Part shown: positions 5,798-61,866 of the stretch, in pieces
Numbering within the stretch: position 1 is the first letter of the stretch
Layout of the letters: every line of letters begins with the position of its first letter
The notes under the pieces: model-generated
The model's database searches: none
Told to the model about the DNA's origin: nothing
What the model saw: only the letters and a program-made list of their open reading frames with translations
Source: Candidatus Omnitrophota bacterium
GTDB taxonomy: Bacteria > Omnitrophota > Gorgyraeia > Gygaellales > Profunditerraquicolaceae
Direction of reading: 5' to 3'
Length of the DNA: 64,000 nt
NCBI GenBank assembly: GCA_028717245.1
Contig: JAQUOD010000009.1
Location: 228-64,227 of the forward strand
Position numbers and translations under genes: made by a program

Positions 5798-7888
5798 GTG
5801 ATGGAGAAAGCCCTCAATGCATCCATTCAATACCTAAAAGGCATAGGCCCCAAGAGGGCTAAGGTATTTAGTGGGGCCGGGATAAATACCATAGAGGACC
5901 TCCTGTATTATTTCCCCAGGCGTTATGAAGACCGCACCAACTTTATCAGTATTTCCAAGTTACAGGAAGGCTCTACCTACACCATAAAAGCCGAGGTCTT
6001 GGCCAAAGGAGAACGCCATTCTTATAGGCGCAGGGGATTTGGTATTACTGAAGTAGCTGTAGGGGATGCTACCGGAAAGATATTCTGCGTCTGGTTTAAC
6101 CGGCCATATCTGAATGAATATTTTAAGGTAGGCCAGACCCTGGTTTTATACGGTAAGATAGAAAAATATGACGCTAGGCTGCAGATGAATTCTCCGGAGT
6201 TTGAGATTGTCTCCGCAGGGCCTGACAAATCTTTGAACATAGGCAGGATTGTCCCTATTTATTCTTTACCGCAAAGACTGACCCAGCGCAGTTTGCGGCA
6301 GCTGATAAAATATGCGTTGGATGAATACCTGCCTAAGATTAATGATACCCTGCCTTATGATATCCGCTCCCGCAATAACCTGCTTAATTTAGCTAAGGCC
6401 CTGCTCAATATTCATTTTCCCGAAAGCCCAGAGATGCAGAAGGAGGCTTACAACCGGCTCTCTTTTGAGGAATTCTTTCTTTTCCAACTGCCCCTGGCCT
6501 TAAGAAAATTAAAAAAGAAAGAAAAACCCGGTATTGCCCATCAAGTAGACGGTGAACCGGCCCGGATTTTTATGGAAAATCTCCCCTTTAGTCTGACTTC
6601 CAGCCAGCAGAGGGTGGTTGCCGAGATTAAATACGATATGGCCCGGCCAACTGCTATGCAGCGGCTACTGCAAGGCGATGTGGGTTCAGGTAAAACCGTG
6701 GTAGCTACTATTGCGAGCTTGATGGCCATTCAGGGAGGATACCAGGTGGCCTTTATGGTGCCCACGGAAATTTTAGCCAGACAGCATTATGAAAAAATCA
6801 GGTGTCAGGTGTCAGGTGTCAGGTGTCAGGAAAAAGAAATAAGAATCGGGCTGCTTACCAGCAGCCTGGAGAATAAAGAAAAGGTTTATAAAGAGATAAA
6901 AGAAGGGGATATAGATTTAGTAATCGGCACGCATGCTTTGATAGAAGAGGCGGTAAAATTTAAAAAATTAGGCTTAATCGTGATTGATGAACAACATAAG
7001 TTTGGCGTGGGCCAAAGGGCATTATTACCGGCAAAAGGGCCTAATGCCGATATTTTGATTATGACTGCCACGCCTATTCCGCGCACCCTGGCAATTACTC
7101 TATATGGGGACCTGGATATTTCAGTCATTAACGAAATGCCTAGCGGCCGCGGCTCAATCAAGACGCTGCTTTTCACCCAAGAGGAACAAGCGCAAGCCTA
7201 TCATATTGCCCGGGAGCAGATAAAACAGGGTAACCAGGCCTACATTGTTTATCCGGTGATTGAGGAATCTTATTCTCTGGATATAGCCGGCGCCAAGAAG
7301 ATGTATGAAGAATTTAAGAAAAGCGAATTCAAGGATTTCAGGTTAGGGCTCATCCATGGCAGGTTAAAACAGGCAGAGCAGAACGCGGTAATGTCTAAGT
7401 TTAAGAATAAGGAGTTGGATATCCTGGTTTCTACTACGGTGTTGGAGGTGGGCATTGATATACCTGCGGCAACCTGCATGATTGTCCAGCATGCCCAGCG
7501 TTTTGGCCTGAGCCAGTTGCATCAGCTGCGCGGGCGCATAGGCCGGGGCCCCCGCGAATCATTTTGTATACTCATTTCTAACACGGATACGCCGCAGGCT
7601 AAGGCGCGGCTGGATGCCATGGTGAAATATAATGACGGATTCCGTATTGCTGAAGAAGATTTGAAGATCAGGGGCCCGGGTGAATTCTTCGGCAGGCGGC
7701 AGCACGGATTAAGCGAATTAAAGATCGCTAATCCTCTATCACAGATGCAATTACTGAAAAAGGCCAGAGAAGAGGCGATAAGACTGGTTTCTCTTGATCC
7801 CAAGTTAGGCCTGCGGCCGAATATTCCTTTACGGGAAAAACTCTTGCAAAGGTTCCCGGAATATGAGAAGTTGATGGTTGTAGGGTAG
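5798..7888 (+). CDS. recG: ATP-dependent DNA helicase RecG
   Basis: wedge domain, Walker A GDVGSGKT, DEQH box, helicase C motifs, 696 aa. Confidence 0.9.
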   Translation: MMEKALNASIQYLKGIGPKRAKVFSGAGINTIEDLLYYFPRRYEDRTNFISISKLQEGSTYTIKAEVLAKGERHSYRRRGFGITEVAVGDATGKIFCVWFNRPYLNEYFKVGQTLVLYGKIEKYDARLQMNSPEFEIVSAGPDKSLNIGRIVPIYSLPQRLTQRSLRQLIKYALDEYLPKINDTLPYDIRSRNNLLNLAKALLNIHFPESPEMQKEAYNRLSFEEFFLFQLPLALRKLKKKEKPGIAHQVDGEPARIFMENLPFSLTSSQQRVVAEIKYDMARPTAMQRLLQGDVGSGKTVVATIASLMAIQGGYQVAFMVPTEILARQHYEKIRCQVSGVRCQEKEIRIGLLTSSLENKEKVYKEIKEGDIDLVIGTHALIEEAVKFKKLGLIVIDEQHKFGVGQRALLPAKGPNADILIMTATPIPRTLAITLYGDLDISVINEMPSGRGSIKTLLFTQEEQAQAYHIAREQIKQGNQAYIVYPVIEESYSLDIAGAKKMYEEFKKSEFKDFRLGLIHGRLKQAEQNAVMSKFKNKELDILVSTTVLEVGIDIPAATCMIVQHAQRFGLSQLHQLRGRIGRGPRESFCILISNTDTPQAKARLDAMVKYNDGFRIAEEDLKIRGPGEFFGRRQHGLSELKIANPLSQMQLLKKAREEAIRLVSLDPKLGLRPNIPLREKLLQRFPEYEKLMVVG
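6789..6820 (+). repeat. in-frame heptamer tandem repeat (CAGGTGT)x4 inside recG
   Basis: encodes RCQVSGVRCQ between helicase motifs. Confidence 0.9.
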
Positions 7889-7893
7889 TTTGA

Positions 7894-8478
7894 ATGTTTG
7901 AAAGTTTGAATGTTAAAAAAAGGGTGGGGAGCTTGCGTATAACTACAGGACAATATAAAGGCAGGGTAATCCGGATGCCCAAAGGTATCCGGCCGACGCA
8001 GGATAAGGTGCGTAAGGCTATCTTTGATATTTTAGGCGATATAGAGGGCTTATCATTCTTGGAGTTGTTCGCTGGCTCAGGGGCAGTCGGTTTTGAGGCT
8101 GCATCGCGGGGCGTTAAAGATTTAATCCTGGTAGAATACAACCAGGATTGCCGTCTGGCCATCAATAAGAACATAGAGTCCCTGAAGCTAAGGGCCTGTA
8201 CCTTATACCCCAAAGAGGTAGAGGTTGCTATCAAGCAGTTCCACCGGGATGGCAGGAATTTCGATATTATCTTCCTCGATCCGCCCTATTATCAGGGCCT
8301 TTCAAAAAAAACCTTGCAAACCCTATCTCTTTATGATATATTAGCGCCCGTTGGTTTAATAGTAGTGCAGCATTTTAAAAAAGACATTCTCCCGGATACG
8401 CAGGGAGAATTAACTTTATTTAAGCAATCAACTTACGGCGACACGCTATTGTCGTTTTACAGAAAAAGGGAGAGTTAA
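7894..8478 (+). CDS. rsmD: 16S rRNA (guanine966-N2)-methyltransferase RsmD
   Basis: RITTGQYKGR...IRPT N-terminus and DPPY motif. Confidence 0.8.
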   Translation: MFESLNVKKRVGSLRITTGQYKGRVIRMPKGIRPTQDKVRKAIFDILGDIEGLSFLELFAGSGAVGFEAASRGVKDLILVEYNQDCRLAINKNIESLKLRACTLYPKEVEVAIKQFHRDGRNFDIIFLDPPYYQGLSKKTLQTLSLYDILAPVGLIVVQHFKKDILPDTQGELTLFKQSTYGDTLLSFYRKRES

Positions 8479-8479
8479 G

Positions 8480-9616: not shown

Positions 9617-9696
9617 CGTTATAGCGTTATAGGGTTATAGCGTTATAGCGTTTGTCAACGCAAGTAACCCAATAACGCAAGTAACGCAATAACGAA
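9617..9696. repeat. inverted arrays of ~8-nt tandem repeats (CGTTATAG x4 / GCAAGTAAC-CAATAACG)
   Basis: intergenic between rpmF and plsX. Confidence 0.85.
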
Positions 9697-9699
9697 AAT

Positions 9700-10686
9700 A
9701 TGAAAATAGTAGTTGACGCCATGGGCGGAGATCATGCGCCCAGGGTGGTGATTGAGGGGGCGATAGCTGCGGTTAAGGAATACGGCGTGGAGATTATCCT
9801 GACCGGAAACGAGGCCCAAATAGCGCCCCTGCTTAAGAAAACAAGGTATAGAGGCAGCGCCATCACTATAGTACATACCGAGGAAGTGATCGGTATGTCT
9901 GAATCCGCGGCTACCAGCGTGCGCAGGAAGAGAAATTCTTCTATTGTCGTGGGTTTGGAATTAGTAAAAGAGGGCAAGGCAGAGGCTTTTTTCAGCGCCG
10001 GTAATACCGGGGCAGTAGTCTGTGCCGCAGCCTTAGGCTTAGGTTTATTGCCGGGCATTGAACGGCCGGGCATTGCCTTAGTTATCCCTACCTTAAAAGG
10101 CATATCCCTGGTGATAGATGTAGGCGCTAATATTGATTCTAAGCCTTCGCAATTATTACAGTACGGGATCATGTCCGACGTCTACTCGCGTTGTATATTA
10201 AATAAACCCAATCCCAGCGTAGGCCTATTAAATATCGGAGAAGAAGAAACTAAGGGAACGGAGTTTATGAAAGAGACGCACGAACTTTTTGAGAAGAGCA
10301 GGCTTAATTTCATCGGCAACGTGGAAGGCAAAGATTTATTTTCCGGTAAGAGCGATATTATTGTCTGCGACGGCTTTATAGGTAATATAGCCTTGAAGGT
10401 TTCAGAGAGCGCTGCCGAGGCCATGGGTGTTTTTTTGAAGCGCCACCTGATGAATAATCCTTTAGGGAAATTAGGTTTACTTTTATTAAGGGGCAGCCTC
10501 ATGCGTTTTAAGAAAGAAATGGATTATTCGGAATACGGCGGGGCGCCCTTATTGGGAGTCAACGGCGTAGTGATTATCGGCCATGGCCGCTCTAATACCA
10601 AGGCCATAAAGAACGCTGTTCGCGTAGCTAAGGAAGAGGTTGAGCGTCAGTTCAACGAAAAGGTCTTGGAAGCGATAAAGCCTTAA
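9700..10686 (+). CDS. plsX: phosphate acyltransferase PlsX
   Basis: MKIVVDAMGGDHAP N-terminus, 328 aa. Confidence 0.9.
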   Translation: MKIVVDAMGGDHAPRVVIEGAIAAVKEYGVEIILTGNEAQIAPLLKKTRYRGSAITIVHTEEVIGMSESAATSVRRKRNSSIVVGLELVKEGKAEAFFSAGNTGAVVCAAALGLGLLPGIERPGIALVIPTLKGISLVIDVGANIDSKPSQLLQYGIMSDVYSRCILNKPNPSVGLLNIGEEETKGTEFMKETHELFEKSRLNFIGNVEGKDLFSGKSDIIVCDGFIGNIALKVSESAAEAMGVFLKRHLMNNPLGKLGLLLLRGSLMRFKKEMDYSEYGGAPLLGVNGVVIIGHGRSNTKAIKNAVRVAKEEVERQFNEKVLEAIKP

Positions 10687-11722: not shown

Positions 11723-12648
11723 TGGATAAGTCCGCTCTTTTATTTGCCGGACAGGGCGCTCAATATATCGGTATGGGAAAGGATTTATACGAATCTTTTC
11801 CTGAAAGTAAATCGGTCTTTGATAAGGCAGATGAGGTTTTGGGTTTTTCTCTTTCCCAACTCTGTTTTGAGGGGCCACAGGAAGAACTGATACGGACCCA
11901 GAATTGCCAACCCGCGATATTAACCGTGAGCGTGGCTGCATGGGAAGCCTTTAAAAATAGTGTCAAAGTGTCAGAGTGTCAAAGTGTCAGTTATGTGGCA
12001 GGTCTGAGCTTGGGCGAATATTCGGCGTTGGTAGCAGCAGAGGCAATAAGTTTTAGAGATGCCGCGTATCTGGTGAGAAAACGCGGGGAGTTTATGGAGC
12101 AAGAGGCCCAGTCCCGGGCGGGTAGTATGGCTTCTATTATAGGATTGGATATCACGGCAGTAAGAGATATCTGCCGTAAGACTAAGACAGAGTTAGCTAA
12201 TATCAATTGCCCTGGCCAAATCGTTATTTCCGGCGGTAAACCGGAAATTTCCGAAGCCCAGAGATTAGCCGAAGAAAGTGGCGCAAAAAAAGTAATCTTA
12301 TTGGAAGTAAGTGGGGCGTTCCATTCTTCTTTTATGCAGGGCGCCTCTTTAAAATTAGCCGGGGAATTGGAGAAAATTAAAATAGAGACGCCCCGGATAC
12401 CGCTGGTGAGTAATGTTACGGCTAGGCCCATGATTAATCCCGCGGAAATCAAGGATAGCTTGATTAAGCAGGTTACGGCCAGCGTCCTTTGGGAAGATTC
12501 AATGGAGTTCATTCTCTCTGAGGGTATAAATCAATTTTTTGAGTTCGGGCCAGGTAAAGTCTTAAAAGGCCTGATGCGCCGTATTGATGATAAGGCGCAG
12601 GTTGTTAATATAGAAAAGAAAGCAGATATTTTAAGTTTTAAGCCGTAA
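11719..12648 (+). CDS. fabD: malonyl CoA-ACP transacylase
   Basis: FAGQGAQ and GLSLGEYSA motifs; ATGA overlap with fabH stop. Confidence 0.9.
   Translation: MMDKSALLFAGQGAQYIGMGKDLYESFPESKSVFDKADEVLGFSLSQLCFEGPQEELIRTQNCQPAILTVSVAAWEAFKNSVKVSECQSVSYVAGLSLGEYSALVAAEAISFRDAAYLVRKRGEFMEQEAQSRAGSMASIIGLDITAVRDICRKTKTELANINCPGQIVISGGKPEISEAQRLAEESGAKKVILLEVSGAFHSSFMQGASLKLAGELEKIKIETPRIPLVSNVTARPMINPAEIKDSLIKQVTASVLWEDSMEFILSEGINQFFEFGPGKVLKGLMRRIDDKAQVVNIEKKADILSFKP
11959..11990 (+). repeat. in-frame octamer tandem repeat (AGTGTCAA/G)x4 inside fabD
   Basis: encodes SVKVSECQSVS just before GLSLGEY active site. Confidence 0.9.
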
Positions 12649-12730
12649 GTTATAAGCTTTAAGCTAAAAAATCAAAAGCACAGGGATTTTTTTAAAAAGC
12701 TTACAACTTAAAGCTTACAGCTTACAGCTG
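12641..12730. repeat. inverted arrays of TTACAGC-type heptamer repeats
   Basis: intergenic between fabD and fabG. Confidence 0.85.
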
Positions 12731-15284: not shown

Positions 15285-15383
15285 TTAAAGTTCCATAATG
15301 TTCCATAAGGTTTCATAACGTTACATAAGGTTACCTCAAAAAAAAGCAACCTTATGGAACATTAGGTAACCTTAGGCAACCTT
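15285..15383. repeat. inverted arrays of 10-nt tandem repeats (GTTCCATAAT... / AACCTTATGG...)
   Basis: intergenic between fabF and leuC. Confidence 0.85.
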
Positions 15384-16676
15384 ATGGAATTTGATAATAA
15401 AATGCCTCATACTATCGCAGAAAAAATATTGATGGCTCATACCGGCAAAAAAGACATCCAGCCGGGAGAATTCGTCGAGGCCAGAGTAGACCTGGCCTTA
15501 GGCAATGATATCACCGCGCCCTTTGCTATAGAAGAATTCAGGAAATCGGGCGCAAAAAAAGTCTTTGACAATAAAAAGATAGCGCTTGTCCCTGATCATT
15601 TTGCCCCGGCCAAAGATTTAAAGAGCGCAAATCAATGCAGGATACTGGCAGATTTTGCCCGTGAACAAAAAATAAAAAATTATTTTGAAATAGGCTGTAT
15701 GGGAATTGAACATGCCCTGTTGCCGGAGATGGGTCTGGTTTCGCCCGGGGATTTAGTCATCGGCGCGGATTCCCACACCTGTACCTACGGCGCGTTAGGC
15801 GCTTTTGCCACGGGTGTCGGCTCCACGGATTTAGCCCGCGCCTTTATAGACGGTAAATGTTGGTTCAGGGCGCCGGCTACCATAAAATTCATATATAAAG
15901 GTAAGCCAAAGCCATGGGTGGCTGGTAAAGATTTAATCCTTTATACCATAGGCCAAATCGGCGTGGACGGCGCGTTAGAGAAGGTGATGGAATTTAGCGG
16001 GCCGTTGATGGGTAAATTAAGCATGGATGATAGATTTACTATGTCCAATATGGCTATTGAGGCAGGAGGAGTTACTGGTTTGATTGAACCAGATGGAATT
16101 ACGTTAAGATATATAAAAGAAGTTTCAAAGTTTAAAAGTTTAAAAGTTCCAAAGTTAAAATTTAAAAATTTGAAATCAGATAGAGATGTGCAGTATGAAA
16201 AAATATACGAATGGGACATTTCTAAATTAGAACCGCAGGTGGCCTGTCCGCATTTACCCGGTAACGTGAAAGCTGTTTCCGGCTTGGGAAAGATAAAACT
16301 TGATCAGGTGGTGATTGGCTCCTGCACTAACGGAAGGATCTCGGACTTACGGATTGCGGCTAGGCTATTAAAAGGCAAGAAAGTAAAGGCCGGATTAAGG
16401 CTGATTATTATTCCCGCAACCCAAAAGATTTATCTTCAGGCGGTAAAAGAAGGCCTGGCGGAAATATTTGTGGAAGCAGGCGGCGTCTTTTCTACCCCTA
16501 CCTGCGGCCCGTGCCTCGGCGGGCATATGGGGATACTTACAGAAGGGGAGACATGCCTGGCCACTACCAACAGGAATTTCATCGGCAGGATGGGCAGCCC
16601 CAAGTCATTCGTTTATCTGGCTAGCCCGGCAGTAGCCGCAGCTTCGGCAATAAAAGGGAGAATATCTCATCCTTAA
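15384..16676 (+). CDS. leuC: 3-isopropylmalate dehydratase large subunit (short, archaeal-type LeuC)
   Basis: aconitase-family Cys ligands (CTNGR, TCGPCLG), 430 aa. Confidence 0.85.
   Translation: MEFDNKMPHTIAEKILMAHTGKKDIQPGEFVEARVDLALGNDITAPFAIEEFRKSGAKKVFDNKKIALVPDHFAPAKDLKSANQCRILADFAREQKIKNYFEIGCMGIEHALLPEMGLVSPGDLVIGADSHTCTYGALGAFATGVGSTDLARAFIDGKCWFRAPATIKFIYKGKPKPWVAGKDLILYTIGQIGVDGALEKVMEFSGPLMGKLSMDDRFTMSNMAIEAGGVTGLIEPDGITLRYIKEVSKFKSLKVPKLKFKNLKSDRDVQYEKIYEWDISKLEPQVACPHLPGNVKAVSGLGKIKLDQVVIGSCTNGRISDLRIAARLLKGKKVKAGLRLIIIPATQKIYLQAVKEGLAEIFVEAGGVFSTPTCGPCLGGHMGILTEGETCLATTNRNFIGRMGSPKSFVYLASPAVAAASAIKGRISHP
16121..16176 (+). repeat. in-frame octamer tandem repeat (AGTTTMAA)x7 inside leuC
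   Basis: encodes VSKFKSLKVPKLKFKNLKS. Confidence 0.9.
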
Positions 16677-19930: not shown

Positions 19931-20707
19931 ATGCGTAATATCAAATTAACTATAGAGTACGCCGGCACTAAATACGCCGGATGGCAGGTCCAGGGCAGAA
20001 GGCACAGGACTATCCAGGGAACGTTAGAAAAAGCCCTCCAGAAAATACTTCGGGAAAAAATACATTTAATCGGTTCAGGCAGGACTGATGCCGGGGTGCA
20101 TGCCTTTGGACAAGTAGCTAACTTTAAGACCGATTCCGGCGTGCCTGTTTGGAAAATACAAAAGGCCTTAAATGCGAACTTGCCAGGCGATATTGTAATA
20201 ACTAGCGTAGAGGACGTAAATTTTGATTTTCATAGCCGCTTTGACGCCAAATCAAAAGTATACCGTTACACTGTTTTAAACAGGGCTTATCCCCCGGCAA
20301 TATTGAAAGATAAAGTTTATTTTTATCCTTACCCTTTAGATGTGGAGTTAATGCGTAAAGAAACAAAGTCTCTTTTAGGCCGGCATGATTTTAAATCATT
20401 CTGTGCCAGCTCAAGCAGCGTTAAAGACACCATACGCACAATAAAAAATATAACTATTAAAAAATCGGCTTACAGCTTACAGCTTACAGTTTACAGTTTA
20501 AAAAAGCCCTCTTTGATTACCATTGAGATAGAGGCAGACGGCTTTCTCTACAATATGGTCAGGAATATTACAGGTACGCTGCTTGAGATAGGCAGGGGTA
20601 AACTTCCCGCAGGCAGCCTTAAGAGGATATTACTGGCAAAAAACAGAAGGCTCGCCGGCCCTACGGCCCCTGCCCAAGGATTATGCCTACTTGAGGTTAA
20701 GTATTGA
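19931..20707 (+). CDS. truA: tRNA pseudouridine(38-40) synthase TruA
   Basis: catalytic GSGRTDAGVHA motif. Confidence 0.85.
   Translation: MRNIKLTIEYAGTKYAGWQVQGRRHRTIQGTLEKALQKILREKIHLIGSGRTDAGVHAFGQVANFKTDSGVPVWKIQKALNANLPGDIVITSVEDVNFDFHSRFDAKSKVYRYTVLNRAYPPAILKDKVYFYPYPLDVELMRKETKSLLGRHDFKSFCASSSSVKDTIRTIKNITIKKSAYSLQLTVYSLKKPSLITIEIEADGFLYNMVRNITGTLLEIGRGKLPAGSLKRILLAKNRRLAGPTAPAQGLCLLEVKY
20469..20500 (+). repeat. in-frame heptamer tandem repeat (TTACAGC)x4-5 inside truA
   Basis: encodes AYSLQLTVYSL. Confidence 0.9.
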
Positions 20708-21591: not shown

Positions 21592-21637
21592 GTTATGAGT
21601 TAGAAAGTTAAAAAGTTCAAATGTTCAAATGTGAAAG

Positions 21638-21865: not shown

Positions 21866-22888
21866 ATGGTAAGGGTAGGGATTGTAGGGGCGACGGGTTA
21901 TGCGGGCGAGGAATTAATCGGTATACTTTTAAGGCACTCGCAGGTAAGAATAACGAGCGTATCTGCCAAAATCGATAAGCCCGAGGGTATAGAAAAGATA
22001 TTCCCTAAATTCAAAAATAAGATTTCCTTGGTTTGCAAAGAGCCGGATATAAAAGAGATCGTCGCTGAATGCGACCTGGTATTTTTGGCATTACCCCATA
22101 CCGTCTCCATGGAGATTGCGCCTAAATTATTGGGCGCCGGTAAAAAGGTAATTGATTTAAGCGCCGATTACAGGTTAAAGAATACCGCAACCTATACGCA
22201 GTTCTATAAGGCAAAACATAAGGATAAGGTAAGCCTCGTTAAGGCAGTATACGGCCTGCCGGAACTGTATAGGGCTAAAATCAAGAATGCCCAGCTTATT
22301 GCTAATCCCGGATGTTATCCGACGGCAGCGATATTATCCCTGGCGCCGCTGGTAGCTTTTAATCTGGCCGATTCAGGTTCTATAATTATCGATGCCAAGT
22401 CCGGGGTAACCGGCGCCGGTAAAAAGGTAGCAGAGAGTTTTCTCTTTTCAGAAATCAACGGGGATTTCAAGGCCTATAAGGTCAATGTGCATCAGCATAT
22501 GCCGGAGATTAATCAGGAGCTGTCAAAGCTGGCGGCTAAAGGGATAAAAGTAATCTTTGTGCCGCATTTGTTGCCTCTGAACAGGGGGATATTAGAGACG
22601 ATATATGTTAAAAAAGGGCAAAGGGCAAAGGGCAAAGGGCAAAAGTTAATAAGTTTATACAAAAAATTCTATAAGAAAGAGCCGTTTGTGAGAATAAAAG
22701 ACGAGGGCGATTTTCCAAGAATAAAAGACGTGGTGGGGACGAATTTCTGCGATATCGGGATTAAAGAAAGCGCAGATTCCATAATTATCATTTCTGCCAT
22801 AGATAATTTATTGAAAGGCGCTTCGGGCCAGGCAGTGCAGAATATGAATATTATGTATAAGTTTCCGGAATACAGCGCGTTAATATGA
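21866..22888 (+). CDS. argC: N-acetyl-gamma-glutamyl-phosphate reductase
   Basis: VGIVGATGYAG N-terminus, active-site Cys in NPGCYPT. Confidence 0.9.
   Translation: MVRVGIVGATGYAGEELIGILLRHSQVRITSVSAKIDKPEGIEKIFPKFKNKISLVCKEPDIKEIVAECDLVFLALPHTVSMEIAPKLLGAGKKVIDLSADYRLKNTATYTQFYKAKHKDKVSLVKAVYGLPELYRAKIKNAQLIANPGCYPTAAILSLAPLVAFNLADSGSIIIDAKSGVTGAGKKVAESFLFSEINGDFKAYKVNVHQHMPEINQELSKLAAKGIKVIFVPHLLPLNRGILETIYVKKGQRAKGKGQKLISLYKKFYKKEPFVRIKDEGDFPRIKDVVGTNFCDIGIKESADSIIIISAIDNLLKGASGQAVQNMNIMYKFPEYSALI
22611..22645 (+). repeat. in-frame heptamer tandem repeat (AAAGGGC)x4.5 inside argC
   Basis: encodes KGQRAKGKGQK. Confidence 0.9.
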
Positions 22889-24035: not shown

Positions 24036-24890
24036 ATGGAAGAAGCAATCAAGAAAGCGGATGTATTGATTGAGGCATTGCCTTATATCAAGAGGTTCCA
24101 TAAGAAGGCGATTGTCATTAAATACGGCGGGAGCATCCTGGGAGAAGAAAAAATCAGGAGAGGAGTCCTGGAGGATATTGTTTTTTTAAGTTTTATGGGT
24201 TTAAAGCCGGTATTGGTACATGGGGGAGGCCCGAATATAAGCGAGCGTATTCGTTCAGAAGGGAAGAAGGCGGAATTCGTAGACGGTATACGCGTCACCG
24301 ATGCAAAGACACTGACTGTTGTGGAAGAGGAGTTGCAGAAATTAAACGATATTATTGTCAATGAGATAACTGAATTAGGCGCAAACGCCGTGGGTTTGAA
24401 CGGCCAGGATAAAAAGATAATCCAGGTAAAGAAGAAGAAAGCAGAGGTAGACCTGGGGTTAGTCGGCCATATTACTGAAATAAATGCCGAACCGATACTG
24501 GAAGAATTTAAGTCTGATACAGTAGTCGTTGTGCTGCCGATGGGCAAAGGCCAGGATAAAAAGGCGTACAATGTCAATGCCGATGAGGCAGCCGCCAATA
24601 TTGCCGCTGCCCTTAAGGCGGAGAAATTAGTTTTGCTTACTAATGTAAAAGGCATTATGCGTAATCCTGATGACCCGAATTCTTTTTTATCTACTTTAAC
24701 GGTAGATGAGGCAAAGGGGTTAATTGAAAATAACATTGTCCAGCAGGGGATGATCCCCAAAGTGATGGCCTGCGTTGAGGCATTAGAGAAGGGCGTAAAA
24801 AAGACGCATATTATTGATGCGCGCACGCCGCACGGTTTGCTTTTAGAGATATTTACGGATATGGGAGTAGGGACGGAGATTGTAAGATAG
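24036..24890 (+). CDS. argB: acetylglutamate kinase
   Basis: VIKYGGS and VLVHGGGP motifs. Confidence 0.9.
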   Translation: MEEAIKKADVLIEALPYIKRFHKKAIVIKYGGSILGEEKIRRGVLEDIVFLSFMGLKPVLVHGGGPNISERIRSEGKKAEFVDGIRVTDAKTLTVVEEELQKLNDIIVNEITELGANAVGLNGQDKKIIQVKKKKAEVDLGLVGHITEINAEPILEEFKSDTVVVVLPMGKGQDKKAYNVNADEAAANIAAALKAEKLVLLTNVKGIMRNPDDPNSFLSTLTVDEAKGLIENNIVQQGMIPKVMACVEALEKGVKKTHIIDARTPHGLLLEIFTDMGVGTEIVR

Positions 24891-24925
24891 TTTAAATGTT
24901 AGAATGTTAAAATGTTTAAAAGTTT

Positions 24926-28890: not shown

Positions 28891-28933
28891 GCCGTAAGCT
28901 GTAAGCCGTAAGTTATAAGATCAAGGAGATGAA

Positions 28934-36984: not shown

Positions 36985-37074
36985 TTGGTTCTTTGAGTTA
37001 CTTGAGTTCATTGAGTTGTTTGAGTTAGAAACTCAATAACTCTATAAACTCAACAAACTCTATAAACTAAATAA
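36985..37074. repeat. inverted arrays of 9-nt tandem repeats (GAGTTNNTT x4 / AAACTCNAT x5)
   Basis: intergenic between the dapL-like gene and folK. Confidence 0.85.
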
Positions 37075-37473
37075 ATGGTAGTTTGTTTTCTGGGGGTAGG
37101 TTCTAATTTAGGAAACAGAAGGAAAAATATCGAGAAGGCATTGGATTATTTGGTAAAGACCAAGGGTATAAAAATAGAAAAAATCTCGCGGATTTATGAA
37201 ACCGAACCTGTGGGCGCAGTCCCTCAGGGAAAATTCTTGAACGCTGCCCTAAAAATCAGGACTTCGCTTGCACCTCTGCCGCTTCTTAAAACCCTTAAAA
37301 AAATAGAAAAGGCCTTAGGCCGCAAGAAGGGTATCCGTTTTGGCCCGCGCCCCATAGATTTAGATATCCTGCTTTACGCAGACAAGGCGATAAAGACAAA
37401 GGAACTTATGATCCCGCATCCTGAGATGTTCAGGAGGGAATTTGTCCTGAAACCCTTAAGAGACCTGTTATGA
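37075..37473 (+). CDS. folK: 2-amino-4-hydroxy-6-hydroxymethyldihydropteridine pyrophosphokinase
   Basis: LGSNLGNR, EPVG and DLDIL motifs. Confidence 0.8.
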   Translation: MVVCFLGVGSNLGNRRKNIEKALDYLVKTKGIKIEKISRIYETEPVGAVPQGKFLNAALKIRTSLAPLPLLKTLKKIEKALGRKKGIRFGPRPIDLDILLYADKAIKTKELMIPHPEMFRREFVLKPLRDLL

Positions 37474-38330: not shown

Positions 38331-38375
38331 AAATTACGAGTTACCAATTACGAATTACCGATTACGGATTTTAGC

Positions 38376-39194: not shown

Positions 39195-39300
39195 TAGATA
39201 AGTTAGTGTCAAGGTGCCAAGTATCAATGTGTCAAAGGAAAAGCAATAAAAGATTTTATACTTTGATACTCTGACACTATGATACTTTGATACATAATCG
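39195..39300. repeat. inverted arrays of ~8-9-nt repeats (GTGTCAAAG... / CTTTGATAC...)
   Basis: intergenic after the nadX-like gene. Confidence 0.85.
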
Positions 39301-42512: not shown

Positions 42513-45011
42513 ATGAATAAACTCAAAAATCAATTTTTTAAATCTCTTAGAATTCTTTTACCTTTTCTTTTTATTTTCGCTTACAGCTTACAGCTTACAG
42601 CTTACAGCTTACATGCCCAGGATTCCTCCAAGGAAGAAGAGGCGCTCTTTGTCGCCGAGAAGGCCTTTGAAGACGGCTTCTATGACGTAGCCTTGGGGCT
42701 CTTTGAGCGTTTCTTAAAGAATTACCCTGCTTCTTCCAGGGCAGCAGAAGCGAACCTTTTAATCGGGCAGTGCTATTATCACCAGAATAGGTTCTTAGAT
42801 GCCCTAGCCAAGTTTGAAGGGCTCCTTACTTGGCCTCCCGCGCAGAATATCAAGGACGAAGTCCTCTATTGGATCGCCGAAGTGCATTTTAAAGGCAATA
42901 ATTTTACCAAGGCAGGCCAGTATTACAGGATGATAATTGAGGGTTACCCGAAATCTTCTTATTCCGTTTATGCCTATTATTCCTTAGGCTGGTGTTTGTT
43001 CCAGGAATCCGATTTTACCGAGGCCGTGAAATACTTTAAAATCACACAGGAGAAATTCCCCAAGGAGCCTCAGGCGCAGGATTCCGCGTTTAAAATAGCG
43101 GAGTGCCTCTATAATCTGAAGGATTACACCGGCACCAAAGACAGGCTGCAATCTTATATGAAGGCCTACCCTAAGGATAGCGCGCGCACCGCTTATATTT
43201 ATTTTTATCTGGCCGAAGCAGATTATTATTTGAACAATTTCAGTGAGGCCATTGATGAATATTCCAAGGCCATAGCCAATACTAATGACGAAAGAATACA
43301 GGCGCTCTCTAAGTTAGGCATAGGCTGGGCCTACCTGAAATCAAAAAAATATAAGGAAGCCCAGGATACGTTTTCAGGCATCGTACCCGATAAACTGGAG
43401 AAAAAGGGGCAGGATATCCTGTTATTAGGCAAAGCGCTTTTATCCGCAGAGACTAAGAGATTTACCCAGGCCAAAGATACGTATGATGAATTATTAAAGG
43501 TATCTTCTGACCCGCTTATTTTAATTCAGGGTTATCTGGGCAAGGCTGAAACGCTTTATAATATTTCCGAATATAAAGAGGCAATAGGCGTATACGAAGA
43601 GGCATTAGACAAGATATCGGCATCCATACCCCAGGAGAGCATTGACAAGCTGCATTACGGCCTGGCCTGGGCATTTTTAAAAGAGGGGGAATTCAAAGAA
43701 GCAATAGACGAATTCCAGAAGATTGCCAGGCACACTGAAGATAAGATGATTAAGGTAGCCGCGCTCTGCCAGATAGGCGATGCCTACCAGGACTCGGGAG
43801 AATACGTCAAGGCAATTGAGGCATACGATACCATATTAAAGGATTATCCGGATACGTTATATAACGATTACGTGCAATATCAGTTAGGCAACAGTTTACT
43901 GAAGACCTATAATTACGACGGAGCGATCATGGCTTTCCAGAGCCTGAAAAACAATTTCCCTAATTCGAAATTATCCGATGAGGCAGCTTATGCCTTGGGG
44001 ATAACTTATTTTCAAAAACAGGACTATAACTCCAGCAAGGAAATCTTCGAAAATTTTAAGGATGAATTTAAAGAGAGCGCCTTAAGGCCCCAAGGCATGT
44101 ATCTTTTAGGGAGCAGCCTCTATAATTTAGGTGAATTTGCGCAGGCTATCGAGGTCTTTAAAGATATCATCAGGAACTACAACCAGGATACGGAGTCAGT
44201 CCAGAAGGCCGAATACGAGATAGCCGATTGCTACTACCAGCTTGGGAATGAAAAAGAGGCCATGGACAGGTTTAAGGTATTGCGCTCCAAATATCCCGAT
44301 TCCCGGCTCACCCCGGAAGTGATGTGGTGGCTGGGGGAGTACTATTACAGGCATGATGACCTGGGCCTGGCGCGCCGGTATTTCTCCTCGCTAATACAGG
44401 ACTTTCCCAAGAGTAATTTAATCCCCGATGCCTACTATATTTTAGGTTCTACTTACGCAGAGGAAGGCAAGTATGAAGAAGCCATAGCAAATTTCAAGAA
44501 GGCAGCAGAATTAGGTAAATCCGACCTCACCGGCACATCCGGTATTGCCATAGCGGATATATATGCCAAACAAGGCAAAACCGATTTGGCCCTGAAGATG
44601 TATAAGGACGTAGCCAGGGAATACGCTAATCTCGCAACTTTGATTTATCCGAAGATCGCAGGCCTCTACCGTAAGTCAGGTAATTATAATGAAGCAATAA
44701 ATTTTTATAACCAGAGCCTGGATGTAGTCCCGGCGAGAGAAATGGCGGATATCCAATTTAAGATAGCAGAGACTAAAGAGGCGCAGGGTGAATACAGCGA
44801 GGCTATCGAAGAGTACTTGAAAGTTACCTACCTTTATGCGGAAAATAACAACTTAGCGGTAAAATCGCTTCTAAGGATAGCCGCGATTTATGAAGATAAA
44901 GAGAATTTTAAAGAAGCGGTTAATATTTACAAAAGAATCCGGGCCATGGATGTAGAAGAGGCAAAATACGCCCAAGAGAGGATGGACTGGATAAAGGCGC
45001 ACGCAAAATAA
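42513..45011 (+). CDS. secreted tetratricopeptide-repeat protein (832 aa)
   Basis: signal peptide followed by many TPR-like A/Y/L repeats. Confidence 0.7.
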   Translation: MNKLKNQFFKSLRILLPFLFIFAYSLQLTAYSLHAQDSSKEEEALFVAEKAFEDGFYDVALGLFERFLKNYPASSRAAEANLLIGQCYYHQNRFLDALAKFEGLLTWPPAQNIKDEVLYWIAEVHFKGNNFTKAGQYYRMIIEGYPKSSYSVYAYYSLGWCLFQESDFTEAVKYFKITQEKFPKEPQAQDSAFKIAECLYNLKDYTGTKDRLQSYMKAYPKDSARTAYIYFYLAEADYYLNNFSEAIDEYSKAIANTNDERIQALSKLGIGWAYLKSKKYKEAQDTFSGIVPDKLEKKGQDILLLGKALLSAETKRFTQAKDTYDELLKVSSDPLILIQGYLGKAETLYNISEYKEAIGVYEEALDKISASIPQESIDKLHYGLAWAFLKEGEFKEAIDEFQKIARHTEDKMIKVAALCQIGDAYQDSGEYVKAIEAYDTILKDYPDTLYNDYVQYQLGNSLLKTYNYDGAIMAFQSLKNNFPNSKLSDEAAYALGITYFQKQDYNSSKEIFENFKDEFKESALRPQGMYLLGSSLYNLGEFAQAIEVFKDIIRNYNQDTESVQKAEYEIADCYYQLGNEKEAMDRFKVLRSKYPDSRLTPEVMWWLGEYYYRHDDLGLARRYFSSLIQDFPKSNLIPDAYYILGSTYAEEGKYEEAIANFKKAAELGKSDLTGTSGIAIADIYAKQGKTDLALKMYKDVAREYANLATLIYPKIAGLYRKSGNYNEAINFYNQSLDVVPAREMADIQFKIAETKEAQGEYSEAIEEYLKVTYLYAENNNLAVKSLLRIAAIYEDKENFKEAVNIYKRIRAMDVEEAKYAQERMDWIKAHAK
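42580..42612 (+). repeat. in-frame heptamer repeat (TTACAGC)x4.5 in the signal peptide of the TPR protein
   Basis: encodes AYSLQLTAYSLHA. Confidence 0.9.
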
Positions 45012-45100
45012 TTGTGTCAAAGTGTCAGTGTATCAAAGTGTCAAAGAAGAAACTTTGATACTTGATACCTTGATACTTTGATACAACCATCGCTATATTA
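45012..45100. repeat. inverted arrays of 8-9-nt repeats (GTGTCAAAG / CTTTGATAC)
   Basis: same repeat unit as at 39195-39300. Confidence 0.85.
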
Positions 45101-47642: not shown

Positions 47643-47777
47643 TTCCTTCCTAAAAATCTATTATAATCTAAGTAAATCTATTATAATCTAAGTAAATAAA
47701 TTATTATCTTATTAGGCCTTAATTTAAGACTAATTTTAAACATAAGTAAGTTTGAGTAAGTCTATATAAAAAAACAC

Positions 47778-55385: not shown

Positions 55386-55457
55386 ATAAGCAGGTAGCAG
55401 GCACCTAAAACAAAGAAATTAATATTTAGTTAAGTTTATTATACAAGGAGGCTCAAG

Positions 55458-55892
55458 ATGAAAAAAGGTTTTACGCTCTTAGAACTAATCGTAGTCATGA
55501 TCATCATCGGTATCCTGGCTACCTTAGGTATCCAGCAATACGCCCGGGCAACAGAGAGGGCAAGAGGCGCTGAGGCCAGGCAGGTTTTAGGCCAGATCCG
55601 CACTACTGCCGCAGGATTTCGCTTACAGAATGGAAATAGTTGTGCAGGGTTTGGGAATGACCAGGCTGGTATTGGCACTGAGACTGACCGGATTCCCATA
55701 GATTGCACCAGAGCGACACACTATTTCAGGTATGGGGTTACAGCCGCTACCGCAGATGCTATTATTCTTACTGCTACACGTTGCACAGGAACTAACGGCA
55801 AACAACCGGGCGCTTCAACAGCTTTTCAACTCACTCTAAATACTGACTTTGTATTGGGCACTGATACCTGGGCCGGAAACGGCGGGTATTAA
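55458..55892 (+). CDS. type IVa pilin paralog 1 (MKKGF|TLLELI)
   Basis: prepilin leader, E+5, Cys pair, C-terminal TWAGNGGY; GGAGG SD. Confidence 0.85.
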   Translation: MKKGFTLLELIVVMIIIGILATLGIQQYARATERARGAEARQVLGQIRTTAAGFRLQNGNSCAGFGNDQAGIGTETDRIPIDCTRATHYFRYGVTAATADAIILTATRCTGTNGKQPGASTAFQLTLNTDFVLGTDTWAGNGGY

Positions 55893-55904
55893 TTTAGGCT
55901 CAAG

Positions 55905-56339
55905 ATGAAAAAAGGTTTTACGCTCTTAGAGTTAATCGTGGTCATGATCATTATTGGTATCCTGGCTACTTTAGGTATCCAGCAATACGCCCGGGCAACA
56001 GAGAGGGCCAGAGGCGCTGAAGCCAGGCAGATTTTAGGCCAGATCCGCAGCACTGCCGCAGGGTATTATTTACAGAATGGAACTTGCGTAGGGTTTAATG
56101 ATACATTAGCGGGTATTGGCGGGAATCCTGACCAGATCCCTACCGGATGCAGGGCAACACACTATTTTAATTATTATATTAATATCGGATATCTGACTAC
56201 GGACGTTATGCGGGCTACTGCTACCCGTTGCATAGGAGGTAGGGGTAAACCGCCGAGCGCTTCAACAGCTTTTCAACTCACTCTGACTACTAATTTTGCT
56301 AATGGCAATGACACCTGGGGCGGAAACGGCGGGTATTAA
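55905..56339 (+). CDS. type IVa pilin paralog 2
   Basis: N-terminal 55 aa and last ~25 aa shared with paralogs 1, 3 and 4. Confidence 0.85.
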   Translation: MKKGFTLLELIVVMIIIGILATLGIQQYARATERARGAEARQILGQIRSTAAGYYLQNGTCVGFNDTLAGIGGNPDQIPTGCRATHYFNYYINIGYLTTDVMRATATRCIGGRGKPPSASTAFQLTLTTNFANGNDTWGGNGGY

Positions 56340-56351
56340 TTTAGGCTCAAG

Positions 56352-56786
56352 ATGAAAAAAGGTTTTACGCTCTTAGAGTTAATCGTGGTCATGATCATTA
56401 TTGGTATCCTGGCTACTTTAGGTATCCAGCAATACGCCCGGGCAACAGAGAGGGCCAGAGGCGCTGAAGCCAGGCAGATTTTAGGCCAGATCCGCAGCAC
56501 TGCCGCAGGGTATTATTTACAGAATAGAACTTGCGTAGGGTTTAATGATGCAGCAGCTGGTCTTGGCGGGAATCCTGACCAGATCCCCAGGGCATGCAGG
56601 GCAACCCACTATTTTTATTATTTCATTAATACTGTAAATGCGGACGGTATTTTTGTTGCTGCTGTGCGTTGCTCAGGAACTGATAACGGTAAACAGCCGG
56701 GTGCTGCTTCTGTTGATCGCGTCCTTACTCTAACTACTAACTTTGCTAATGGTGTTGATACCTGGTCCGGAAACGGCGGGTATTAA
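56352..56786 (+). CDS. type IVa pilin paralog 3
   Basis: as paralog 2. Confidence 0.85.
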   Translation: MKKGFTLLELIVVMIIIGILATLGIQQYARATERARGAEARQILGQIRSTAAGYYLQNRTCVGFNDAAAGLGGNPDQIPRACRATHYFYYFINTVNADGIFVAAVRCSGTDNGKQPGAASVDRVLTLTTNFANGVDTWSGNGGY

Positions 56787-56798
56787 TTTAGGCTCAAG

Positions 56799-57233
56799 AT
56801 GAAAAAAGGTTTTACGCTCTTAGAACTAATCGTAGTCATGATCATCATCGGTATCCTGGCTACCTTAGGTATCCAGCAATACGCCCGGGCAACAGAGAGG
56901 GCCAGAGGCGCTGAAGCTAGGCAGATTTTAGGCCAGATCCGCGCTACTGCCGCAGGGTATCGCTTACAGAATGGAACTTGCACAGGGTTTAATGATGCAG
57001 CAGCTGGTATTGGCAGGAACCCTGACCAGATTCCCAGGGTATGCGCGTCAACGCACTATTTTTATTATTGGCTTCATCCTGATACTGGGGGTGATACTTT
57101 TCGGGCTATTGCTACGCGTTGCACGGCAGCAGAAAGCGGTAAGTCACCAGGAGCTTCAGCAGCCCTTTTCCTCTCACTAACTACTAATTTTGCTAATGGC
57201 ACTGATACCTGGTCCGGAAACGGCGGGTATTAA
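56799..57233 (+). CDS. type IVa pilin paralog 4
   Basis: as paralog 2. Confidence 0.85.
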   Translation: MKKGFTLLELIVVMIIIGILATLGIQQYARATERARGAEARQILGQIRATAAGYRLQNGTCTGFNDAAAGIGRNPDQIPRVCASTHYFYYWLHPDTGGDTFRAIATRCTAAESGKSPGASAALFLSLTTNFANGTDTWSGNGGY

Positions 57234-57274
57234 TCTTTAGGGAGCATTGATACATTCGTAAAAGGAGGCTCAAG

Positions 57275-59259: not shown

Positions 59260-59264
59260 AATAT

Positions 59265-60377: not shown

Positions 60378-61866
60378 AGCCACAAGTTGCAAGGCAAGAT
60401 TCCTAAAAATCATCTTGTTTCTTCTTTTTACTTACAGCTTACAGCTTACAGCTTACAGCTTATATGCTGATGATATCCAGGAACCCAATGCCGCAGGCAC
60501 TTTCTACCCGGACGACCCGCAGCAGTTATCCCAAATGATTGACGAATTTTTGAATCAGGCAAACCCAGAGGCAGTGCAGGGCGATATATTCGCTTTGATT
60601 TCCCCGCATGCGGGTTATGGTTTTTCAGGGGGAGTAGCTGCCTTTGGCTATAAGCTGATCAAAGATAAGCCATATAAGACGGTGATTATTATCGGACCCA
60701 GCCACCAGTATGGTTTTCAAGGCGTATCCGTGTATCCAAAAGGAATATTCCGCAGCCCCTTAGGAGATTTAGAGATAGATACGGAATTTACCAAGAATTT
60801 GCTTTATCAGGAGAATAATATCTTTTTTGAGCCGGCAGCTTTTGAAAAAGAACACTCAATAGAAGTACAGCTGCCCTTTTTGCAAAAAGTTCTTTCTAAT
60901 TTCAAAATCGTGCCCATTGTGATGGGGGATTGCAGTTTTTCTACCTGCCAAAAATTAGCAGGTTTACTGAAAGAGGCGATAGGCAGTCGCAGGGATGTTT
61001 TGGTAGTTGCTTCCACGGATATGTATCACGGTTATGATTATGCAGAGGCAGGGGTAGTTGACAATTTGACCCTTAGTTATCTTGAGGATATGGATGCCCG
61101 GGGTTTATATGATGGATTAAGAGAAGGCAAACTACAGCTTTGCGGAGGGTTTGGGGTTGTCTCTACCTTAATTTTAGCCAAAGAATTAGGCCACAATAAA
61201 TTGAAAGTATTAAAATATACGGATTCCAGCATAGTAACAGGAAAGAAGGCCAAGGGGGCCTGGACCGTAGGTTATGCCAGTTGTGTTATCGATCAGGAAA
61301 AGGGGGAGTTAAATATGTTAAATAAAGAGCAGAGAAAAAAGCTATTGGGTATTGCGCGTAAATCCATAGAGGCGTATTTAAAAGGCGGAAAAAAACTGCA
61401 ACTTAATGAAACAGATCCCGTATTGTTAAAAGAGATAGGCGCCTTTGTGACCTTGCATGAACGCGCTCAATTACGCGGCTGTATCGGAAATATAATAGGG
61501 CGGGGCCCCCTGTATCTTACCATTAGGGATATGGCTGTTGAGGCAGCGACAGGAGATCCGCGTTTTCAGCCTATGAAACCTGATGAACTCAAGGATGTTG
61601 AAATAGAGATATCCGTGCTTTCTCCTTTAAAAAGAATAACCTCCATAGATGAAATTCAATTAGGTACCCATGGTGTTTTGATCAGGAGGGATTTTGCCAG
61701 CGGCATATTCCTGCCTCAGGTAGCCACGGAGACCGGCTGGCCCAAAGAAGAATTCCTCTCTAATCTCTGCAGCCATAAAGCAGGATTGGAGCCGGATGCC
61801 TGGAAGGATAAGGCCACGGAAATTTATATTTTTAGCGCCGAAGTATTTTCTGAAAAAGATTTTTAG
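60328..61866 (+). CDS. fused MEMO1-family (AmrB-like) and AMMECR1-family (AmrA-like) protein with N-terminal signal-peptide-like segment
   Basis: AAGTFYPDDP MEMO1 N-terminus; C-terminal AMMECR1 motifs GAFVTLHE...LRGCIG; overlaps the AmrS gene by 50 nt. Confidence 0.75.
   Translation: MGNVNSVEKKLRVSGSRATSCKARFLKIILFLLFTYSLQLTAYSLYADDIQEPNAAGTFYPDDPQQLSQMIDEFLNQANPEAVQGDIFALISPHAGYGFSGGVAAFGYKLIKDKPYKTVIIIGPSHQYGFQGVSVYPKGIFRSPLGDLEIDTEFTKNLLYQENNIFFEPAAFEKEHSIEVQLPFLQKVLSNFKIVPIVMGDCSFSTCQKLAGLLKEAIGSRRDVLVVASTDMYHGYDYAEAGVVDNLTLSYLEDMDARGLYDGLREGKLQLCGGFGVVSTLILAKELGHNKLKVLKYTDSSIVTGKKAKGAWTVGYASCVIDQEKGELNMLNKEQRKKLLGIARKSIEAYLKGGKKLQLNETDPVLLKEIGAFVTLHERAQLRGCIGNIIGRGPLYLTIRDMAVEAATGDPRFQPMKPDELKDVEIEISVLSPLKRITSIDEIQLGTHGVLIRRDFASGIFLPQVATETGWPKEEFLSNLCSHKAGLEPDAWKDKATEIYIFSAEVFSEKDF
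60431..60466 (+). repeat. in-frame heptamer repeat (TTACAGC)x5 in the N-terminal hydrophobic segment of the MEMO1-AMMECR1 fusion
   Basis: encodes TYSLQLTAYSLYA. Confidence 0.9.

Follow-up and report, generated by a model that had tools for sequence, protein, structure and literature searches.

Heptamer arrays and a 20-nt palindrome within and between housekeeping genes of Candidatus Omnitrophota as putative STRR/SDR-type elements

The 64,000-nt stretch of Candidatus Omnitrophota DNA analyzed here (contig JAQUOD010000009.1, positions 228 to 64,227; hereafter the window) carries short tandem arrays of about 30-35 nt, built from units of 7-8 nt (rarely 9-10 nt), together with a palindromic module, and these occur both between genes and inside conserved housekeeping genes. 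We interpret the arrays and the palindrome as DNA-level elements of the type of the cyanobacterial STRR (short tandemly repeated repetitive) sequences and SDR modules, accumulating where they are tolerated, a reading to which we give a probability of roughly 0.6. New here are the phylum and the sequences, the frequent 8-nt units, the recurrent copies within open reading frames (ORFs) of housekeeping proteins, and the widely shared 20-nt palindrome.

Tandem Repeats Finder returned 62 rows for the window, corresponding to 31 non-overlapping arrays (period 6-10, at least 2.5 copies), compared with 0-4 in each of the ten dinucleotide-preserving shuffles of the window that served as the chance control. 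At 2.6 per kb, nineteen of these arrays lie in the 11% of the window that is non-coding, and ORFs hold the remaining 12, at 0.21 per kb; the initial annotation, made from the sequence alone, had recognized the intragenic arrays but overlooked the intergenic ones, which form the majority. Period 7 accounts for 12 of the 31 arrays, more than 20 distinct units are found within the 64 kb, and array lengths range from 30 to 57 nt. Host genes were identified from Pfam, against which 50 window ORFs were scanned, and the remaining ORFs only via orthologues. According to Pfam, the hosts are RecG, FabD, LeuC, TruA, ArgC, LysA, DapF, UvrA, a TPR protein, and a Memo-AMMECR1 fusion, and the arrays within them are as follows:

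6798-6830, + strand: recG array, TCAGGTG in 4.7 copies with 100% matches, encoding IRCQVSGVRCQE
11959-11990, + strand: fabD array, 8-mers AGTGTCAA/AGTGTCAG in 4 copies
16120-16176, + strand: leuC array, AAGTTTAA-type 8-mer in 7 imperfect copies
20468-20500, + strand: truA array, GCTTACA in 4.7 copies, encoding AYSLQLTVYSL
22613-22643, + strand: argC array, AAAGGGC in 4.4 copies, encoding KGQRAKGKGQK
31414-31470, + strand: lysA composite, TTACGAG in 2.6 copies, the 21-nt palindromic module CTGCCTGTCCGGCATGCAGGT (31432-31452), and GAGTTAC in 2.6 copies
31798-31836, + strand: dapF site-1 array, degenerate, CAGTTGT-type
32373-32407, + strand: dapF site-2 array, TTACAGC in 5.0 copies with 100% matches, encoding ITAYSLQLTAYS
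40370-40420, + strand: uvrA inverted double array, GCCGGTTG in 2 copies, then AACCGACA/AACCGGC in 4.4 copies; potential hairpin with a minimum free energy (MFE) of -26.5 kcal/mol
42579-42613, + strand: signal-peptide array of the TPR protein, GCTTACA in 5.0 copies, past the hydrophobic core
60431-60462, + strand: signal-peptide array of the MEMO-AMMECR1 fusion, CTTACAG in 4.6 copies, past the hydrophobic core

The blocks that had been listed in the initial annotation were all confirmed, their positions agreeing to within a few bases (the leuC block is imperfect and dapF site 1 is degenerate), and each sits in an uninterrupted ORF, so that the reading frame is indeed kept. The GCTTACA array, alternatively written TTACAGC, occurs at five window sites, as had been counted, if the imperfect intergenic copy at 12698-12729 is included, and the TTACGAG family occurs at two. 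These five arrays have no common flank or boundary, and their starts and ends differ in phase, so they are not copies of an inserted element with fixed boundaries.

Between genes, six spacers have paired inverted arrays that form long predicted hairpins (-29 to -42 kcal/mol), and single arrays can occupy an entire spacer from stop codon to start codon (e.g., 24890-24926):

7888-7914, + strand: boundary array, GTTTGAAT in 3.4 copies, covering the recG stop codon and the start of the next gene
9617-9708, + strand: inverted double array upstream of plsX, CGTTATAG in 4.5 copies, then AACGCAAGT-type; long hairpin, MFE -30.2 kcal/mol
12630-12729, + strand: inverted double array at the fabD-fabG junction, TTTAAGC-type on the left (this arm overlaps the fabD stop codon) and AGCTTAC in 4.6 copies (GCTTACA family) on the right; MFE -28.8 kcal/mol
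15286-15384, + strand: inverted double array of 10-mers, TAAGGTTCCA and GCAACCTTAG, taking up the whole fabF-leuC spacer; MFE -37.7 kcal/mol
21598-21632, + strand: array downstream of rpsI, 8-mers AGTTAAAA/GTTCAAAT
24890-24926, + strand: argB-argD spacer array, GTTTAAAT in 4.6 copies, stop codon to start codon
26222-26260, + strand: array upstream of the ornithine carbamoyltransferase gene, AATGTTTG in 4.9 copies
28888-28919, + strand: argG-argH array, TAAGCCG in 3.6 copies, from the argG stop codon towards argH
36988-37075, + strand: inverted double array of 9-mers, TTGAGTTAA and AAACTCAAT, filling the spacer; MFE -30.7 kcal/mol
38332-38370, + strand: intergenic array, AATTACG/AATTACC in 5.6 copies, TTACGAG family
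39205-39293, + strand: inverted double array upstream of uvrA, AGTGTCA-type and TTTGATAC; MFE -30.0 kcal/mol
45013-45084, + strand: inverted double array downstream of the TPR gene, GTGTCAAA and ACTTTGAT; MFE -41.6 kcal/mol, the most stable of these hairpins

As 7 and 3 have no common factor, each of the three reading frames of a heptamer array yields one and the same cyclic heptapeptide. The shared frame of four of the five GCTTACA copies, to which significance had been attached, is therefore uninformative. The peptide AYSLQLT is encoded in two enzymes (an epimerase and a pseudouridine synthase) as well as in two signal peptides. Of the 12 intragenic window units, 11 are stop-free in every sense-strand frame, and inversion would bring stops into 10 of the 12; of the 19 intergenic units, 14 contain stops. 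Taken together with a 9-12-fold depletion of arrays in ORFs and with hot spots that recur among orthologues, these observations indicate that selection filters a DNA-level process, which best explains most of the in-frame residence and agrees with the early proposal of selection on tolerated sites. The appearance of having been "inserted in frame" would thus arise because the filter keeps stop-free, frame-keeping copies, aided by the frame-independent heptamer peptide. Since each unit position falls on the first, second, and third codon positions in successive copies, any change spread across an array is non-synonymous somewhere; if units are homogenized, this rotation may help to conserve coding arrays at the nucleotide level.

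The arrays were compared with solved structures and orthologues, using gene order that is conserved across the retrieved loci and permits site-by-site comparison (L-numbers denote these loci or contigs of relatives, metagenomes, and viruses). In RecG of T. maritima and E. coli, native residues align with the recG array, whose net gain amounts to +1 to +5 amino acids (aa), while the net gain is +5 aa for fabD (against solved FabD structures), +3 aa for leuC (against 4nqy), +10 aa for the lysA composite (against 2p3e), and +4 aa for argC against 1vkn from Thermotoga but 0 against other Omnitrophota. When 13 orthologues are compared, the truA array stands out as a 13-aa insertion against 11 of them, and the other two have different inserts there, one of them a GGTTCTA heptamer array. 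UvrA is ∼13-20 aa longer than most orthologues at its array, which lies just past the UvrA_inter (UvrB-interaction) domain (aa 149-255, Pfam). At both DapF sites the net gain is only 0 to +1 aa. From these gains, the encoded residues are not conserved ancestral sequence, as an alignment to orthologues had been expected to reveal, but many arrays replace a variable segment rather than add to it. The 10-22 added residues that had been estimated are too many, given a net range of 0 to ∼20.

It could be argued that the residues encoded by the repeats are ancestral or were selected as features of the protein, for instance as low-complexity linkers, with the DNA periodicity being incidental. In an AlphaFold model of DapF (pLDDT 91), site 1 is the lowest-confidence loop (block mean 68), and site 2 is predicted with confidence to encode the C-terminal end of helix 204-217 together with the turn after it; furthermore, the site-2 array of L198 differs from that of the window by synonymous changes only, which shows protein-level constraint on it. 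This explanation is nonetheless very improbable, and is largely refuted by the intergenic copies with stop codons in their units; in solved homologues and in many orthologues, these positions are either missing or filled by unrelated residues, and a single peptide, AYSLQLT, recurs in proteins as different as those named above. The original view that these are DNA-level repeats and not ancestral coding sequence is upheld by the same facts, namely the recurrence of units intergenically and at non-homologous sites and the orthologues that lack them or carry other units.

Two further mechanisms were considered and rejected: translational bypass (as in mitochondrial byps or T4 gene 60), as the arrays are stop-free and the frame is kept in every species examined, and diversity-generating retroelements, as the segments are ∼30 nt with no template repeat or reverse transcriptase nearby.

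Repeats of other kinds are also present in the window. In argD, where a tandem array between ARKF and YEIIT had been expected, there is none; instead, a 60-nt in-frame insert (25283-25345) consists of two hairpins without tandem repeat and encodes TSTQPSASLSADGERSRTIG between RKFG and NGRYEIIT. It is 93% nucleotide-identical in L002 and partial in L029 and L047, while L001, the closest relative, lacks it, as do most orthologues. It appears to represent another type of small, palindromic insert that keeps the frame. An RRM-domain protein (203-889) has three in-frame 30-nt repeats in its C-terminal tail (695-783), which differ in kind from the heptamer arrays because their period is a multiple of three. 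Longer-period intergenic repeats occur at 47654-47709 (20 nt, 2.8 copies) and at 61949-62020, downstream of the Memo-AMMECR1 gene (23 nt, 3.1 copies).

The phenomenon is clade-wide rather than particular to one genome. With LysA as the query, GTDB genomes and metagenomes each yielded 80 loci, almost all of them labelled Candidatus Omnitrophota, the best being 82% identical. The DapF protein has an identical NCBI entry from a metagenome-assembled Candidatus Omnitrophica genome; the closest non-identical DapF relative is 74% identical, and nothing above 78% LysA identity was found in the metagenome scan. Exact-protein look-ups gave no match for LysA or L13, and nothing beyond a 1-kb Logan contig for DapA. 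Across 140 non-redundant loci of Omnitrophota (1.88 Mb in total), 418 arrays were found at 0.136 per kb in long ORFs and 1.27 per kb outside, a ∼9-fold higher density outside ORFs. Period 7 makes up 254 of the 418 (∼60%, in and outside ORFs alike), followed by period 8, and the median array length is 31 nt for periods 7, 8, and 10. Lineages differ widely in density, with values between 0 and ∼12 per 10 kb. The literature searched contained no paper connecting Omnitrophota with such repeats.

Arrays recur at the same protein positions in different species. In LysA they are found at aa∼323 in 15 of 81 orthologues, in ArgC at aa∼250 in 12 of 51 (with other units than in the window), in UvrA at aa∼250 in 4 of 33, and in TruA at aa∼180 in 3 of 14. 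DapF has three hot spots among 78 orthologues, at aa∼21 (13 orthologues), aa∼88 (13), and aa∼214-225 (∼10), and strict period-7 peptides occur in 33 of the 120 closest DapF homologues from a collection of 5.8 billion proteins, all at these three sites. The L001 orthologue of the TPR ORF has a TTACGAG array near its 5′ end, and the argB-argD spacer of the same relative has a TTACGAG array with the palindromic core.

Such recurrence also bears on whether the repeats are assembly or chimera artefacts of a metagenome-assembled genome (MAG). Repeats do disturb de Bruijn assemblies, as seen in the Logan unitig L081 (SRR22315508, same organism), which ends exactly inside the dapF GCTTACA array when compared with window 32378-32560. 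This independent contig nevertheless joins at least 4 GCTTACA units to the dapF flank, the arrays are shorter than a sequencing read, orthologous positions are occupied in dozens of MAGs from different projects and assemblers, and every ORF is intact across its array. An artefactual origin is hardly credible.

Units are shared more within genomes than between them: 20% of within-genome pairs from different sites are at most one mismatch apart, compared with 4.9% of pairs between genomes. Unit families are also common to different species; ACGCTAT, AACTCGT/AATTACG, and AAAATCC, for example, are each found in 13-17 loci. At a given site, units vary by species; at the LysA site, for example, they are CTATACG, CACCGTA, CGAGCAT, AAAGTATC, CGAAAAC, CAAGTCA, GTCACCGG, and TTACGAG. 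Two 93%-identical loci, L087 and L121, have unrelated units at LysA, DapF site 1, and DapF site 2; their LysA arrays keep a length of 34 nt with two 21-nt cores added, and in the dapF mid-site of L121 a 21-nt core is precisely inserted in a GCAAATC array that is otherwise unchanged. Mismatch between the two is 18% in arrays and 8% elsewhere. The window and L197, on the other hand, have identical DapF site-2 arrays (39 of 39 nt, 13 of 13 codons) in dapF genes that are 68% identical as a whole, and codons for conserved residues elsewhere in the gene match at 43% (P about 2e-5). The peptide TAYSLQLTA at this site is common to eight homologues at 67-74% identity, and the array is found in at least 8 species. 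Thus, some arrays are replaced fast, and others are held or re-established at the nucleotide level.

These patterns can be set against the expectation for ordinary microsatellites, each arisen locally by slippage on a chance direct repeat and evolving independently, with no mobility or exchange. Slippage does occur: the sole difference in 11.5 kb between L060 and L161 (99.93% identical) is an 8-nt, one-unit indel in an intergenic array, although among 17 near-identical locus pairs only 1 of 14 indels is in an array, too few for a rate. The array ends, out of phase from site to site, would also fit, and heptameric simple sequence repeats (SSRs) are over-represented in many bacterial genomes, for which polymerase slippage has been proposed (PMC4692102). 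Local origin does not, however, account for GCTTACA at five unrelated sites in 64 kb, for within-genome sharing four-fold above that between genomes, or for the conservation of the TTACGAG, GCTATCC, and AAATCC families and of the 20-nt palindrome across species with saturated synonymous sites. The precise module insertion and the length-neutral array swaps between 93%-identical genomes are equally foreign to it, and one-unit slips would frameshift essential genes, yet coding arrays equal intergenic ones in periodicity. We consider this account distinctly unlikely.

The arrays could instead be functional cis-elements, either heptad binding sites (like omega or ParG operators) or mRNA stabilizer/processing hairpins (like REP/BIME), with sequence kept by selection and the intragenic copies functional or at least tolerated. 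The use of the same spacers and loops across species, the characteristic length of ∼31 nt, the very stable hairpins of intergenic pairs directly 3′ of stop codons, the orientation bias of unit families (e.g., AAATCCA, 23:5), and the 13 identical codons of the DapF array in otherwise divergent genes are all in its favor. It is harder to reconcile with different units at one site across species, with different units at similar sites in one genome, with the exchange of arrays for unrelated units between L087 and L121, and with relatives such as L007, which has no arrays in 21 kb of the syntenic region. In addition, no terminator-like T-run follows the intergenic hairpins, and at the Rfam gathering threshold a tRNA alone was matched, with no family for the arrays. 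Overall, the cis-element reading appears unlikely, though it deserves some weight, above all for the intergenic hairpins.

The palindromic module, CCTGCCTGCCGGCAGGCAGG, is 20-21 nt long (with 19-21-nt variants) and sits inside arrays in heptamer phase. It has 46 matches in 31 of the 140 loci, compared with 1 in shuffled sequence, and most copies are bordered on both sides by the local unit. The one window copy, in lysA, is embedded such that TTAC + CTGCCTGTCCGGCATGCAGGT (21 nt) + GAG restores the TTACGAG phase exactly, and this composite is also found in L116 (lysA and dapF), L087, and L001. The core together with arrays occurs within lysA, dapF, argC, and uvrA ORFs. The initial idea of 7 x 3 = 21 nt holds literally for this in-phase module.

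Exact copies of the 20-mer were also found in IMG/VR, in 35 stretches, of which many have 60-68% GC. One of these, L162, is a phage contig of 67% GC that encodes a terminase, portal protein, and S49 protease, and here the core lies between GGTGAGA and inverted TCTAACC heptamer arrays, an architecture as in Omnitrophota spacers. In L186 (2239-2330), the core is in the variable loop of a 92-nt tRNA-Met, which without these 20 nt would be a canonical 72-nt tRNA. No paper with the 14-nt center of the palindrome, CTGCCGGCAGGCAG, was found in the literature searched. Elsewhere in IMG/VR, the palindrome adjoins tRNA-like fragments in L163 (8616) and L193 (515), the latter in a D-arm-like context, and a variant, TACCGGCAGGCAGGCCATGCC, is tandemly repeated ∼10 times with a 21-nt period in L195 (∼3915-4124).

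A bolder reading would be that heptamer arrays and CCTGCCTGCCGGCAGGCAGG together form a class of ultra-small mobile elements not described before, present in more than one phylum and with their own sequence-specific machinery, which move in 7-nt steps (3 x 7 = 21 nt = 7 codons), home into arrays, overwrite the same surface segments of essential proteins again and again, and enter phage genomes and tRNA genes. We hold this to be possible but tentative; if true, it would represent a new route for selfish DNA to rewrite protein loops with the frame kept.

Under the preferred reading of STRR/SDR-type elements, arrays would originate and turn over by replication slippage with template switching (copy-choice) among arrays and hairpins; alternatively, a trans-acting enzyme might recognize the palindrome, with flanking units carried along. 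New copies would land preferentially in existing arrays or overwrite them. Spacers of co-directional genes would become filled, often by two inverted arrays folding into long hairpins, while within genes only sense-strand stop-free, frame-keeping copies would survive, with purifying selection presumably eliminating frame-breaking variants. The surviving intragenic sites would be structurally permissive ones, such as loops, helix ends, domain linkers, and signal-peptide tails.

Several observations weigh against this reading. No transposase, reverse transcriptase, or RAYT was found among the 50 window ORFs scanned against Pfam. A search for half-site pairs 0.3-4 kb apart enclosing an ORF, with target-site duplications, as expected if the module were an IS-derived minimal MITE consisting of terminal inverted repeats alone, gave no convincing parent element with the same ends in the loci, all of which were chosen around lysA, where insertion sequence (IS) elements are not expected. 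Simple cut-and-paste of a fixed element is excluded because the five GCTTACA arrays are without common boundaries or flanks. The cross-species nucleotide identity of the DapF array could reflect functional sequence instead, and the conserved spacer positions and lengths, together with the orientation bias, would agree with cis-regulation as well. Among the 17 near-identical pairs, slippage was seen a single time.

The claim that no described element has these properties was too strong, as STRR heptamers, 21-27-nt SDR modules, and Rickettsia palindromic elements are close precedents and the closest known kinds. STRR sequences, said to have been described by Mazel in 1990, are short tandemly repeated repetitive heptanucleotide sequences. 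The window units (GCTTACA, TTACGAG, CAGGTGT, and others) are presumably not those of STRR1-3. The likeness lies in tandem 7-nt units, in the many copies dispersed over a genome, in the coexistence of several unit families, and, here, in a mainly intergenic location. The RNase P RNA gene, too, can contain STRR heptamers (Vioque, 1997, NAR 25:3471, as cited in PMC2858038). The host differs, being Candidatus Omnitrophota rather than heterocystous cyanobacteria, and the Omnitrophota arrays are distinguished by frequent 8-nt units, a characteristic length of ∼31 nt, and a specific palindrome; their copies also appear, from alignment of orthologues, to lie often within housekeeping ORFs at shared hot spots.

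The SDR4-6 of Nostocaceae are, reportedly from the work of Elhai and colleagues in 2008, apparently mobile modules of 21-27 nt with no encoded enzyme. They are said to insert precisely into short repeated targets (HIP1 in the case of SDR5), to be present or absent between related genomes, and to be associated with heptamer repeats. The 21-nt module that is present in dapF of L121 and absent from that of L087 resembles them in size and in this difference between related genomes. SDRs are reported from Nostocaceae only (PMC5861425), and the 2008 work is also cited in PMC4390886. The Omnitrophota module differs in being a perfect 20-nt palindrome found across Omnitrophota and high-GC phage contigs.

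Rickettsia palindromic elements, attributed to Ogata and colleagues in 2000, are reportedly selfish palindromic DNA of 100-150 bp that resides in frame in protein and RNA genes, is translated, and occupies tolerated positions. In-frame residence in ORFs is shared, and the Omnitrophota core also occurs in a tRNA variable loop; size and form differ, as the Omnitrophota elements are 20-57 nt, tandem micro-repeats, and mostly intergenic. REP/BIME and REPIN-RAYT sequences are high-copy palindromes of ∼20-40 nt that are strictly extragenic and tied to a RAYT transposase gene (PMC3116915). Similar to these, the intergenic hairpins lie at gene 3′ ends between co-directional genes and are non-autonomous, but the Omnitrophota elements are also within ORFs and consist of tandem heptamers, and a RAYT (IS200/IS605-like) gene was absent from the scanned ORFs, which represent the 64-kb window only.

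In phase-variable contingency SSRs, a change in copy number switches the expression of surface or restriction-modification genes. Units that are not a multiple of three inside ORFs, with copy number changed by slippage, are common to both systems; the Omnitrophota hosts, however, are essential biosynthesis and repair genes in which a one-unit slip means loss of function, no frame-shifted alleles were seen among orthologues, copy number is low (4-5), and the only copy-number polymorphism seen is intergenic. Heptameric SSRs have been studied in Xanthomonas and Nostoc (PMC4692102).

The Omnitrophota arrays offer a second, richer system for the STRR/SDR problem, which has been known for decades in cyanobacteria without a mechanism. 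There are hundreds of sequenced relatives with conserved synteny, and array density spans 0 to 12 per 10 kb among lineages, so that any responsible enzyme could be pinpointed by comparative genomics, its presence being matched to array density. Micro-repeats able to occupy and re-occupy the same positions in essential enzymes matter for how protein loops evolve, for gene calling and alignment in candidate phyla, and for mutational load. Arrays break short-read assemblies, as in L081, and can be mistaken for artefacts or for low-complexity protein regions.

Several other features of the region were observed. The real genes of window 1-64000 are essentially all on the + strand, and GC skew is positive in all 2-kb bins but one (34-36 kb, with a low-GC ORF), consistent with a segment of a single leading-strand replichore. 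This 500-aa ORF (34256-35758; GC 0.377, reversed GC and AT skew, no Pfam match), between dapB and an aminotransferase gene, lacks orthologues in all 80 syntenic loci and resembles an insertion specific to its lineage. In L197 (7292-8732, argH-lysA), a PhdYeFM, ParE, and NTP_transf_5/AbiEii-like toxin-antitoxin/nucleotidyltransferase cluster is present that is absent from the window. A type II/IV secretion cluster (PilM/N/O, secretin, T2SSE, T2SSF) is followed downstream, at 55449-57234, by four tandem copies (447-nt period, 81% matches) of a gene for a 144-aa pseudopilin with an N-terminal methylation motif.

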